DNA from: a virus
Virus record (IMG/VR): IMGVR_UViG_3300048856_000029
Span: 1 to 24,845 of that record
Length of the DNA stretch: 24,845 bases
Reading direction: 5' to 3' (one strand)
The notes below the pieces were generated by a model. The model searched no databases and was not told where the DNA came from. It saw only the letters and a list, made by a program, of their open reading frames with translations. The translations under genes were made by a program, and so were the position numbers. Shown here in pieces: positions 988 through 17,725 of this stretch. The first letter of the stretch is position 1. Each line of letters begins with the position of its first letter.

Positions 988-1005
988 TCAATCAGTATTG
1001 ACTTT
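988..1005. promoter_or_regulatory. 18-bp palindromic motif copy 1 (TCAATCAGTATTGACTTT)
   Basis: Reverse complement AAAGTCAATACTGATTGA matches the consensus; overlaps a putative -35 box. Confidence 0.75.
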
Positions 1006-7526: not shown

Positions 7527-7528
7527 GC

Positions 7529-7557
7529 TTGCTGATCAGTCAATACTGACTTATCAT
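7529..7557 (+). promoter_or_regulatory. Putative promoter TTGCTG-N17-TATCAT with motif copy 5 (7536-7553, TCAGTCAATACTGACTTA) in the spacer
   Basis: CTTG-type -35, 17-bp spacer, ATG 7 nt after the -10. The extended palindrome TGATCAGTCAATACTGACTTATCA spans 7533-7556. Confidence 0.7.
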
Positions 7558-7563
7558 TAAGGT

Positions 7564-13921: not shown

Positions 13922-13923
13922 TC

Positions 13924-13952
13924 TTGATCATCAGTCAGTATTGACTTATGTT
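13924..13952 (+). promoter_or_regulatory. Putative promoter TTGATC-N17-TATGTT with motif copy 6 (13931-13948, TCAGTCAGTATTGACTTA) in the spacer
   Basis: Same register as the promoter at 7529; ATG 13959 lies 7 nt after the -10. Confidence 0.7.
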
Positions 13953-13958
13953 GAAGTT

Positions 13959-15511: not shown

Positions 15512-15826
15512 ATGCCACTGACCTACGCAACGCCGCTTCTTTACCCGTCCGTTCCGGCAACCCAACAGCCGATCGTCAAGGACGGAAAGATCGTCGCTTG
15601 GATCGTGAAGATCTCCATGACGCTGAACGGCATCGTTCACTCGGCGACCGAATATTACGAGTCCGCGGAGGATGAGATCCTCCCCGAAGAAACCCACGAC
15701 GCCGGCCCGCTGCTGGAAAAGATTTTGCTCAAGATGGACCTCGAGCGCGACCTCAACAACCGGTGCGCCCGAGAGCTTGAGCAGAAGGCCTACAACCTCA
15801 ACAGAGCAACAGGAGTATCGAAATGA
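15512..15826 (+). CDS. Hypothetical protein (104 aa)
   Basis: SD AGGAG at 15498-15502; codon usage matches neighbours; ATGA-coupled to the next gene. Confidence 0.7.
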   Translation: MPLTYATPLLYPSVPATQQPIVKDGKIVAWIVKISMTLNGIVHSATEYYESAEDEILPEETHDAGPLLEKILLKMDLERDLNNRCARELEQKAYNLNRATGVSK

Positions 15827-16071
15827 CGACTATCGTTGAACCGCCGAAATGGCAGCCGCCCGAAGCAGATCCGCTGGAAGGCATGGTCCGCTACAAGGAC
15901 ATCTGGGTCGATGAAAAGCTGACCGACGCCGAGAAGGAGAAGTTCTACCAGGACTTCATCGCTGCCCGGCCGAAGGCTCGCAAGAAGCTTCCGCTGTTTA
16001 TCGGCGTCGCCGCTGCCGTGGCCCTTGGCCTCGTCGGACTCTACGCACACTACCAGTTGGGGCTGTTTTAA
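15823..16071 (+). CDS. Small membrane protein with C-terminal TM helix
   Basis: 82 aa, SD AGGAG; a basic patch RPKARKK followed by hydrophobic LPLFIGVAAAVALGLVGLY. Confidence 0.7.
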   Translation: MTTIVEPPKWQPPEADPLEGMVRYKDIWVDEKLTDAEKEKFYQDFIAARPKARKKLPLFIGVAAAVALGLVGLYAHYQLGLF

Positions 16072-16089
16072 CAGGGGCCCCTAAAACAG
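16063..16089. repeat. Inverted repeat CTGTTTT(AAC)AGGGGCCCCTAAAACAG over the stop codon
   Basis: Near-perfect palindrome with a 3-nt bulge; no clear U-tract follows. Confidence 0.5.
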
Positions 16090-16092
16090 TTG

Positions 16093-16138
16093 TGGACTTG
16101 CCGCTTTGCGTCTGGGATAATAAGTCACTACTGACTGA
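16093..16138 (+). promoter_or_regulatory. Putative lysis-cassette promoter TGGACT-N17-(TGn)GATAAT plus motif copy 7 (16121-16138, TAAGTCACTACTGACTGA)
   Basis: -35 at 16093-16098, extended TG at 16113-16114, -10 at 16116-16121; the motif covers the predicted +1. Confidence 0.6.
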
Positions 16139-16160
16139 TTCCCACACGCAAAGCAGGCAA
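16098..16160 (+). repeat. 63-nt hairpin enclosing motif copy 7
   Basis: TTGCCGCTTTGCGTCTGGGA (16098-16117) pairs with TCCCACACGCAAAGCAGGCAA (16140-16160) with one mismatch and one bulge. Confidence 0.85.
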
Positions 16161-16165
16161 AGACA

Positions 16166-16504
16166 ATGGCTGGCACCGCATCCCCGTTGACACTACACCA
16201 GGCTCGCGTCGCCATTGTAGTCGGCGTTCTGACCATCGCCGGCTTCATCTGGAGCAGCGTCAGCTATCTGAAGGAAGGTGAGAAGAAGGATCTCCAGCAG
16301 GACGGCCGCATCAGCCAGTCCGAGATCAACCTCACCGAGACCAAGGACTCGATCAACAAGCTGACAGTCAAGACCGATGAGCTGACCAAAGCCGTCGTTC
16401 GTCTGACGACGGTCATCGAAACCCGTCCGACGTCCGATCGAGCCGCTCTCGATCGTCAATACTACCCGCTCACCATTGACCGTGCTTCCGCTGAAGTTCG
16501 GTGA
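16166..16504 (+). CDS. Single-TM coiled-coil membrane protein, holin/antiholin candidate
   Basis: N-terminal TM (VAIVVGVLTIAGFIWSSVSYL) followed by a heptad-rich region; directly upstream of the endolysin candidate. Confidence 0.55.
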   Translation: MAGTASPLTLHQARVAIVVGVLTIAGFIWSSVSYLKEGEKKDLQQDGRISQSEINLTETKDSINKLTVKTDELTKAVVRLTTVIETRPTSDRAALDRQYYPLTIDRASAEVR

Positions 16505-16522
16505 TCAGTCAATACTGATTGG
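16505..16522. promoter_or_regulatory. 18-bp palindromic motif copy 8 (TCAGTCAATACTGATTGG)
   Basis: Begins at the first base after the upstream stop codon, just before the endolysin SD AGGAGA. Confidence 0.8.
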
Positions 16523-16537
16523 ACAGGAGATTTCGCA

Positions 16538-17029
16538 ATGAACACTGGTCTCGAATGGCTCGACAAGGCCTACTCCTATATCGGCGAACGAGAAATTAAG
16601 GGTGCCAAGCACAATCCACTCATTCTGCGCATGTGGGATGCGATCAAGTCGTCCTGGTTCAAGGATGATGAAACGCCCTGGTGCGCCGGCTTCGTCGGCC
16701 TCTGCCTCGAAGAGTCCGGTATCAAGTCGACCCGCTCCGCATCCGCGCTCTCCTACGAGAAGTTCGGCGTCAAGCTCGATCGGCCGGCCGTCGGCTGCAT
16801 CGTCACCTTCAAGCGTTCCGGTGGTGGACATGTCGGCTTCGTCGTCGGCAAGGATCGCTACGGCAACCTGATGGTCCTGGGCGGCAACCAGGGCGACATG
16901 GTCTCCATCAAGCCGTTCTCGACCGGTCGCGTCACGTCCTATCGCTGGCCGTCCGTCTATCCGGCAGAGCATCGCTTCGATCTGCCGATCATCAACAGCG
17001 ATGGCAGGGTCTCCACGAATGAAGCCTGA
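16538..17029 (+). CDS. TIGR02594-family Cys/His hydrolase, probable endolysin
   Basis: GEREIKG..HNP.I, DDETPWCAGFV, GGHVGFV and LGGNQ motifs; lies among holin and spanin genes. Confidence 0.85.
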   Translation: MNTGLEWLDKAYSYIGEREIKGAKHNPLILRMWDAIKSSWFKDDETPWCAGFVGLCLEESGIKSTRSASALSYEKFGVKLDRPAVGCIVTFKRSGGGHVGFVVGKDRYGNLMVLGGNQGDMVSIKPFSTGRVTSYRWPSVYPAEHRFDLPIINSDGRVSTNEA

Positions 17030-17444
17030 ACTGCAATCGCTAATTCGCGAAATTGCCGATGAGCTGAAGGTCGAGGCGGGATACCGCTTCGGCCCGTCCG
17101 CGCTCCAGGCACGCCTGGACAATCTCGATCTCGCCGAGAGCGCAATCGTCGGCGAGGACGTGATCGAGGATCTGCTCTACGTCGATCTGCTCGAAGCCAA
17201 TGGCTACGACGAGCTGCCGGACGTCATCCACTACACCATGATCCGCAATGCTTTCGACCTCGGTGTCGTGCGCGCCACCCTGATCCTTCAGGGCGCCATT
17301 GCCAAGATCGAGCCGCGCCATCACCGCAGCGGCAATCTCGAGCTGCTGGATATCGATCTCGCTCACAAGCACGCGGCTGTTCTCGGTCATCACCTGGCCG
17401 AGCGCCGTGCCTTTTTCGCTCTGCGTCAGGGAGGCATCCTTTGA
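17019..17444 (+). CDS. Hypothetical soluble protein within the lysis cassette
   Basis: 141 aa from ATG 17019 (17001 also possible); fills the gap exactly and overlaps both neighbours. Confidence 0.65.
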   Translation: MKPELQSLIREIADELKVEAGYRFGPSALQARLDNLDLAESAIVGEDVIEDLLYVDLLEANGYDELPDVIHYTMIRNAFDLGVVRATLILQGAIAKIEPRHHRSGNLELLDIDLAHKHAAVLGHHLAERRAFFALRQGGIL

Positions 17445-17725
17445 AGGACGAACTGATGAACAAGCTGTTTCTCGACAACTGGCCCAAGCGACGCAGATGG
17501 ATGCAAGTCATTCTCGCGTGGGCGCTCGCTAACGCGCAATACATCATCATCTGGGGTCGAGACAGCGGCCTGCACGAAAACGCGCTTATAGCGCTTCTCA
17601 CGCTGATTGCGTCGATCCTCGGCACCTATGTTTTCGGCGCTACCTGGGATGATCGCGACAAACGCCGGCACTTCTCCCGCGACCGTGACCGCGAGATGGA
17701 CGTGACGGAAGGGCAGGGCGAATGA
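17441..17725 (+). CDS. Holin (2 TM)
   Basis: RRR followed by two hydrophobic segments, YVFGATWDD, and a highly charged C-tail; SD GGAGG before the TTG. Confidence 0.7.
   Translation: MKDELMNKLFLDNWPKRRRWMQVILAWALANAQYIIIWGRDSGLHENALIALLTLIASILGTYVFGATWDDRDKRRHFSRDRDREMDVTEGQGE

Follow-up and report, generated by a model that had tools for sequence, protein, structure and literature searches.

A predicted promoter nested within a ribosome-binding-site-masking hairpin at the head of a phage lysis module

Introduction

Can the first gene of a phage lysis module be translated from RNA that reads in from the tail genes upstream, or would it be translated from a transcript of its own? This question is raised by a 24,845-nt stretch of viral DNA (the window), which stands at the very start of a single virus record of 115.7 kb (59% GC) and in which a hairpin, a promoter-like sequence and a repeated palindrome overlap directly before the first gene of the lysis module. 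An earlier note on the window had proposed that the hairpin hides the ribosome-binding site (RBS) on read-through mRNA, and that an operator-covered internal promoter gives an mRNA from which the 5' arm of the hairpin is missing. The precedent it named, that of the T4 genes e and soc, is indeed of this kind: in T4 the genes e (lysozyme), soc, 49 and I-TevI carry an inhibitory hairpin at the initiation region, with one or more late promoters within or just after its 5' strand (PMC3014915).

Sequences and calculations

Orthologous regions were gathered from 13 further lineages of the RHEph10/SSU5-like family by means of the 112-aa product of the first lysis-module gene (26-67% identical), with L001-L006 drawn from phage records and L007-L010 and L081-L094 from assembly contigs. 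RBS occlusion was expressed as the free energy needed to open positions -15 to +4 of the start in an RNA spanning -100 to +30, and the null for this opening energy was a dinucleotide shuffle of everything upstream of the predicted start.

Results

The gene order in the window is tape-measure, J-like tail protein and accessory genes, and then the lysis block with a CHAP endolysin, a two-TM 94-aa protein and an Rz-like/Rz1-like spanin pair; a T5-A1-like protein and a long fibre follow 3' of it. The nearest named relatives are the Rhizobium phages RHEph10, RHph_N1_10 and RHph_Y2_11, whose A1-like protein is ~66% identical. A ParA gene was found in the genome, and RHEph10 has been named among phages carrying plasmid-like genes (PMC7969092), for which reasons we favour a temperate phage-plasmid of the RHEph10/SSU5-like, Rhizobium type as the source element. 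On the same grounds a T5-like lytic phage, which had been our first guess from the A1-like protein, was dropped.

The features of the locus are collected in Table 1. The start of the 112-aa protein (M1-A2) is kept in its homologues. As neither a Pfam or PHROG family nor an informative Atlas neighbour was found for this protein, the label of holin was not adopted for it, and the two-TM 94-aa protein encoded downstream is an alternative holin candidate. The lysis module is mosaic when window positions 16538-17725 are compared with L001-L006, L010 and L081-L094: the window and L008/L009 have the CHAP endolysin together with proteins of 140-147 and 86-94 aa, and most relatives have DUF7940 and a GH24-type lysozyme. 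Despite this mosaicism, the first lysis gene and its promoter are common to all compared relatives.

Table 1. Features at the head of the lysis module in the window, and RBS occlusion before the orthologous gene in related lineages
Feature	Position	Strand	Remarks
Upstream 82-aa gene	15823-16071	+	C-terminal TM segment; stop codon 16069-16071
Outer helix, 5' strand	16087-16094	+	pairs with 16164-16172 (AUG and next codon)
-35-like hexamer TGGACT	16093-16098	+	TGGAyT or TTGCCr in relatives
Hairpin 5' arm	16098-16117	+	also the 17-nt promoter spacer (16099-16115); anti-SD strand
Extended -10	16113-16121	+	TG (16113-16114), n, GATAAT (16116-16121)
Palindrome copy AGTCA-CTAC-TGACT (AGTCA-N4-TGACT)	16123-16136	.	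putative operator; extended form ~16119-16140
Predicted transcription start	16127-16130	+	predicted from position, 6-9 nt past the -10
Hairpin 3' arm	16140-16160	+	in the 5' UTR
SD-like run AAGCAGG	16151-16157	+	8 nt 5' of ATG 16166, wholly in the 3' arm
First lysis-module gene	16166-16504	+	112 aa; N-terminal TM helix and coiled coil
CHAP/NlpC-P60 endolysin	16538-17029	+	preceded by a palindrome copy (16507); RBS not occluded (z -1.8)
RBS in L081			occlusion z 5.0
RBS in L092			occlusion z 3.8
RBS in L004/L006			occlusion z 3.3
RBS in RHEph10 group			occlusion z 0.5-4.3
RBS in L082			occlusion z 2.1
RBS in L094			occlusion z 1.8
RBS in L007			occlusion z 1.8
RBS in L087			occlusion z 1.6
RBS in L091			occlusion z 1.3
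RBS in L008			occlusion z 1.0
RBS in L085			occlusion z 0.5
RBS in L093			occlusion z -0.2
RBS in L010			occlusion z -0.5

The 63-nt hairpin of the earlier note, with the palindrome at its apex, was recovered with every coordinate confirmed. Its arms are complementary save for one bulge (A16155) and one C/C mismatch (16112/16145), and its folding energy is -34.6 kcal/mol, as against -12.6 +/- 2.8 kcal/mol in 200 dinucleotide shuffles (z -7.8, 0/200). When the outer helix is included the energy reaches -39.9 kcal/mol (z -7.2) and the AUG is paired as well, such that the predicted structure holds the Shine-Dalgarno (SD) sequence in its 3' arm and the start codon in its outer helix. AAGCAGG is the sole SD-like run, the leader being without any other G-rich run; the claim that the only SD-like sequence lies in the 3' arm was thus confirmed, with a slightly better match than the GCAGG originally pointed out. 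This SD is nevertheless weak, with one mismatch, and the 112-aa gene may for this reason be poorly translated anyway.

Folding of RNA 16060-16200 in comparison with 16128-16200, a check which the earlier note had proposed, gave a z of -5.35 for the long RNA and left the short one essentially unstructured (-8.4 kcal/mol, z +1.6). Such a difference follows from the geometry of the site, since the 5' arm of the hairpin serves as the 17-nt spacer of the promoter and would be missing from an RNA begun near 16128. Among 23,131 windows of 70 nt in the 115.7-kb genome, the hairpin ranks about 12th in stability when only non-overlapping ones are counted. No other of the ~44 palindrome copies is the centre of a helix nearly as long, and the arm sequences of the hairpin are found nowhere else in the genome. 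An Rfam search with the hairpin returned only a spurious sub-threshold match to a miRNA precursor, reflecting mere hairpin shape, a tRNA search found none, and a terminator scan predicted no intrinsic terminator between 16071 and the hairpin. Directly past the stop of the 82-aa gene, window positions 16056-16090 hold a core of GGGGCCCC flanked by CTGTTTTA and TAAAACAG; this element is a weak palindrome without a U-tract, and a terminator was not predicted there.

The opening energies agree with the folding results. Opening the RBS of the 112-aa gene costs 17.7 kcal/mol in the long RNA and 8.1 kcal/mol in the short one, and when the upstream part was shuffled the cost was 8.3 +/- 2.0 kcal/mol (0/150), which gives the window a z of 4.8 (range 4.3-4.8). 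The controls, 28 other palindrome-proximal gene starts of the genome, had a mean z of -0.01, so that the opening-energy test is not biased, and the lysis site was the highest of the 29 operator-proximal starts. In this model, the RBS would be sequestered on the long RNA, as the earlier note had supposed. The RBS of the endolysin was more open than its shuffled controls (z -1.8), and gating would therefore be limited to the first gene. Between these two genes, at 16505-16537, lies a further palindrome copy of the lysis block; the relative L008 is without this copy and its gap there is only 10 nt.

The promoter TGGACT-N17-GATAAT, which had been drawn over the 5' arm in the earlier note, was given independently by a promoter scan (16093-16121, with the extended -10 TG) and matches the consensus at 9/12 positions. 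Prediction and conservation together place its start 3' of the 5' strand of the hairpin. All 13 further lineages keep a -35-like hexamer, a spacing of ~17 nt, a -10 and a palindrome of their own before the orthologous gene, in an upstream gap of 70-95 nt (shorter in two) which runs in the order -35-like hexamer, ~17 nt, -10, the lineage's palindrome and a leader of 20-30 nt with an SD. Across the lineages the -35 is TGGAyT or TTGCCr, being weaker in TAAGTAAG-type lineages, and the -10 is CATAAT, GATAAT, TATAAT or TATATG-like. The extended TGn is kept in five of the eight lineages with an ATAAT-type -10, namely the window, L007, L008, L082 and L093, and in the last four of these it is conserved as TGn-CATAAT. 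The sequence of the spacer is not conserved among lineages; hexamers conserved at a constant distance, with freely varying sequence between them, are the classic signature of a promoter. Nor is the gene upstream of the promoter conserved, which puts this promoter at the head of the lysis module. The ATAAT is specific to the lysis site, the flanks of other palindrome copies being GAT[AC], and is therefore not a mere part of the operator. In viral and genome contigs, a related-locus search for close relatives suited to covariation and a scan with the exact promoter-operator pattern each gave zero matches; a looser pattern gave 70 loci in metagenome contigs, essentially all of them chance matches in low-GC DNA, among which L037 alone was faintly similar.

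The palindrome at the apex of the hairpin covers, in DNA, the predicted transcription start. The window has 9 such sites (17 matches over the two strands, 0.34 expected) and the genome as a whole ~44, nearly all of them intergenic. Many copies of this one site stand at promoter-like sequences: ~14 lie 0-7 nt 3' of a CTATTA/CTATAT-like box, which we take to resemble the rhizobial -10 consensus, and some lie within a promoter spacer (7538, 13933, 109035). In each lineage the palindrome that stands immediately 3' of the lysis-promoter -10 is the lineage's own genome-wide version. Thus RHEph10 has the version AGT[CA]AATATTGA[CT]T (25 matches on both strands vs 5 for a control pattern) and B1VFA a third version of the AGTAA[GT]TAATTACT type, and the lysis promoters of both bear the version of their own element. 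This covariation of site and element points to a binder encoded by the element over a host factor. The site differs from element to element, has palindromic symmetry and overlies start sites in a variable register; from these sequence features it is best read as the putative operator of an element-encoded dimeric repressor. A host-factor site of the LexA or CtrA type was ruled out, as the palindrome differs between phages of similar hosts. The repressor was sought among the minus-strand genes at 92.5-102.7 kb, which include ParA and a UvsW-like helicase and no clear HTH repressor.

Occlusion of the RBS recurred in the relatives. The 13 lineages exceeded the 28 controls (Mann-Whitney p 0.00024; Stouffer z 6.5 without the window), with representative z values of 5.0, 3.8, 3.3, 2.2 and 2.1, and occlusion was absent or weak in four to five lineages (L010, L093, L085, L008 and L003). 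In the MFE structures of many relatives, the promoter spacer, the -10 or the -35 pairs across the palindrome with the SD or the AUG. The sequences that pair differ by lineage, being GCTCTCTAT/ATGGAGAGC in L081, GTCGTC/GACGAC in L092, TCTCGTC/GACGAGA in L007 and TTGCCATC/GATGGCGA in L094. These helices are of 6-9 bp and their 3' partner is always the translation initiation region; full 20-bp arms are found in the source genome only, its closest relatives L007 and L008 having 7-8 bp. As for the covariation that the earlier note had asked for in related phages, occlusion recurs with different sequences, whereas classical covariation comes down to a single strictly compensatory pair (C16104-G16153 in the window vs T-A in L008), because the pairings of the relatives are not positionally homologous. 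A comparison of cognate with non-cognate spacer/leader duplexes gave p 0.017 when the window was included; once it was left out the result was marginal (p 0.089), and this is the weakest of the tests.

Discussion

Taken as a whole, the models suggest that the locus is probably a promoter inside an RBS-masking hairpin of the T4 gene e/soc type, with a sigma70-type promoter and a putative repressor operator. From what was computed, namely the hairpin and its statistics, the conservation of promoter and palindrome and the recurrent occlusion in relatives, we infer the transcription start, read-through, the block to translation, repressor binding and a purpose as follows. On RNA that enters from the tail-accessory genes upstream, the spacer of the promoter (16098-16117) would pair with the leader (16140-16160) and 16087-16094 would pair with the AUG, such that AAGCAGG and the start codon would be buried and the first lysis-module gene would go untranslated on the read-through RNA. 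Polymerase at TGGACT-N17-TGnGATAAT would start near 16128, within the hairpin loop, and this transcript, lacking the 5' arm, would have an open RBS. The palindrome overlaps this promoter from about -3 to +13, and in the plasmid state a repressor encoded by the element would presumably keep the promoter closed. Production of the membrane protein would then depend solely on this repressor-gated promoter, with insulation against transcription from upstream, whether leaky or strong. The extra cost of ~9.6 kcal/mol suggests a large reduction in translation, of an order comparable to T4 e, this being a rough expectation and not a computed rate; for T4 e the reduction is reportedly about 100-fold.

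We take the hairpin device for insulation or a fail-safe rather than for a delay timer, because the same palindrome is found on promoter-like sites upstream in the tail block (7538, 13933), so that the source of read-through and the nested promoter would be released together. The earlier note had held that read-through stays silent until the motif-binding protein lets the internal promoter fire; with the palindrome also upstream, and at ~44 sites in all, that part of its proposal is not supported in the form given. Such a fail-safe is plausible where an element maintained as a plasmid encodes a membrane protein. We also put forward, tentatively, a broader possibility that extends to RHEph10/SSU5-like phage-plasmids at large. 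These may share a conserved and selected double-lock cassette, made up of a sigma70 promoter, a spacer that is the anti-RBS strand and a master-repressor operator in the loop, which would silence, in the plasmid state, the portal gene at least and a lysis-module gene whose product damages membranes, by the repressor on DNA and by the hairpin on RNA, and which would be maintained by continual compensatory turnover of spacer and leader rather than by conservation of sequence.

Other roles for the hairpin have to be weighed against this reading. It could be an element of RNA processing or stability, either an RNase III site or a protective 3'-end hairpin that separates tail from lysis mRNA, with the effect on the RBS secondary or relieved by cleavage. 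The lower stem of 18-19 bp, with one bulge and one mismatch, is within the size range of RNase III substrates, and the hairpin stands exactly at the module boundary; however, the 6-9-bp helices of the relatives are too short for RNase III and yet target the SD or AUG, and a 3' partner that is always the translation initiation region would be needless in a pure processing site, which makes this explanation unlikely. The hairpin could likewise stop or pause transcription so that tail-block transcripts end short of the lysis genes; such a signal would account for the presence of so stable a hairpin where a gene block ends, the more so as other motif copies in the genome are fused to canonical terminators (1631, 111740). 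Those evident terminators have a U-tract, though, whereas the hairpin is followed by none (AAGACAAUGG), and the terminator scan found nothing at the hairpin. On these two counts an intrinsic terminator was ruled out, and a stop or pause signal of any sort is the least probable of the alternatives considered here.

Masking of the RBS might, on the other hand, be relieved by upstream ribosomes or by a trans-acting factor, in which case read-through RNA would be translated conditionally. RBS-masking helices are the classical basis of translational coupling, and in RHEph10-type records an annotated upstream ORF crosses the promoter region and stops in the palindrome. In the window, however, 27 nt separate the stop codon of the 82-aa gene from the 5' arm, and 12 of the 13 other lineages likewise have promoter and anti-RBS strand in an untranslated gap (51-87 nt), so that terminating ribosomes should not reach the helix; coupling or regulated unmasking is for this reason very unlikely. 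We give an equally low probability to a feature without any role in RNA, be it an extended protein-binding palindrome, a cruciform around the operator or a lineage-specific accident. The full 20-bp arms are indeed peculiar to the source genome (7-8 bp in L007 and L008) and are symmetric around a putative DNA-binding palindrome, but a 22-nt loop disfavours cruciform extrusion, and independent lineages show different promoter/initiation-region complementarity more often than controls. The absence of the arm sequences from the rest of the genome further argues that they are not a second recognition motif, and a second DNA motif in the arms was accordingly ruled out.

The nested promoter in an RBS-masking hairpin, as we read the locus, resembles T4 e/soc in several respects: the SD and/or AUG would be sequestered on longer read-through transcripts, the promoter is placed such that its transcript would lack the 5' strand and be translatable, the device sits on a lysis-module gene, and related phages keep the design with diverged sequences. 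In contrast to T4, a strictly lytic phage in which gp55-dependent late promoters (TATAAATA) are used and expression is delayed, the window has a sigma70-like promoter (-35, 17 nt, extended -10) whose spacer also serves as the anti-SD strand, and its hairpin loop contains a repressor-type palindrome, in what we take to be a temperate phage-plasmid. The relation is one of analogy in functional class and not of homology. The principle is already known from T4, and the window is a new, well-supported in silico instance of it in a different phage group, with two twists, a sigma70-type spacer as anti-SD strand and a repressor-type palindrome as loop.

Dispersed regulons are likewise familiar from phage-plasmids, the C1 repressor of P1 having many scattered operators. 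The palindrome is comparable in that one short site occurs ~44 times, almost always intergenic and often abutting or overlapping a -10-like box, and in that each lineage of the window's family has its own version of it. It differs from the P1 operators in being a palindrome of 14-22 bp, and P1 is not, to our knowledge, known to have an operator of this kind within the loop of a hairpin that masks an RBS. The coat/lysis/replicase region of the RNA coliphage MS2 is a case of translational coupling via RBS-masking helices, in which a long-range helix hides a downstream RBS as is predicted here. Unlike in MS2, where upstream translation opens the helix, the helix of the window lies in an untranslated gap and would be bypassed by the nested promoter.

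If this reading is true, the promoter-in-hairpin trick of T4 would extend beyond T-even late genes, as a general and independently reached way to keep dangerous phage genes untranslatable on stray transcripts, adapted here to a temperate phage-plasmid that coexists over generations with the lysis genes it carries. The device would also provide a rule of annotation, whereby conserved -35/-10 hexamers, a lineage palindrome and an SD-complementary spacer mark the head of the lysis module in a poorly studied family, and a natural compact part (~75 nt) that ties the translation of a gene to its own promoter.

Further sites in the same genome

A second promoter-in-hairpin is found at genome positions 109005-109085 (~106-186 of locus L089), 5' of the portal gene (ATG 109081, phrog_145). 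There a 5' strand, CATGGGTCTGTC...GTTGCC, pairs across the palindrome copy at 109035 with GGACAGGCCCCATGG, which holds the SD and AUG (-36 kcal/mol), and a predicted promoter, TTGCCA-N17-TATCAT with the palindrome in its spacer, would start 3' of that 5' strand. The opening energy is 16.4 vs 4.7 kcal/mol (z 2.9). As this case is equally clear, the design is not specific to lysis. At 51017-51095, two palindrome copies stand 5' of a 129-aa gene (GTG 51093) that has no PHROG family and whose RBS is occluded in the long RNA only (14.0 vs 1.6 kcal/mol, z 2.35).

Within the window, the short gaps at 7527-7563 and 13922-13958 each contain CTTG(C/A)T, 17 nt that hold the palindrome and a TTATCA/TTATGT box, with an ATG ~7 nt past this box. 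They look like putative operator-in-spacer promoters that would give near-leaderless mRNAs, and the genes served are a minor tail gene (7564) and a post-J gene (13959). Some RBS occlusion is seen at site 7538 (z 3.15).

The genome also has two paralogous double-palindrome leaders, one in the window (990-1003 and 1039-1052) and the other at 111740-111816, in which two copies 49-63 bp apart come first, a small hairpin with a T-run next, and AGGAG and the ATG last. They stand before two structural genes that are probably highly expressed. In the leader at 111740, an extension of the first palindrome makes it a canonical terminator, with GTGCAGTC...GACTGCAC and then TTTTTCTC.
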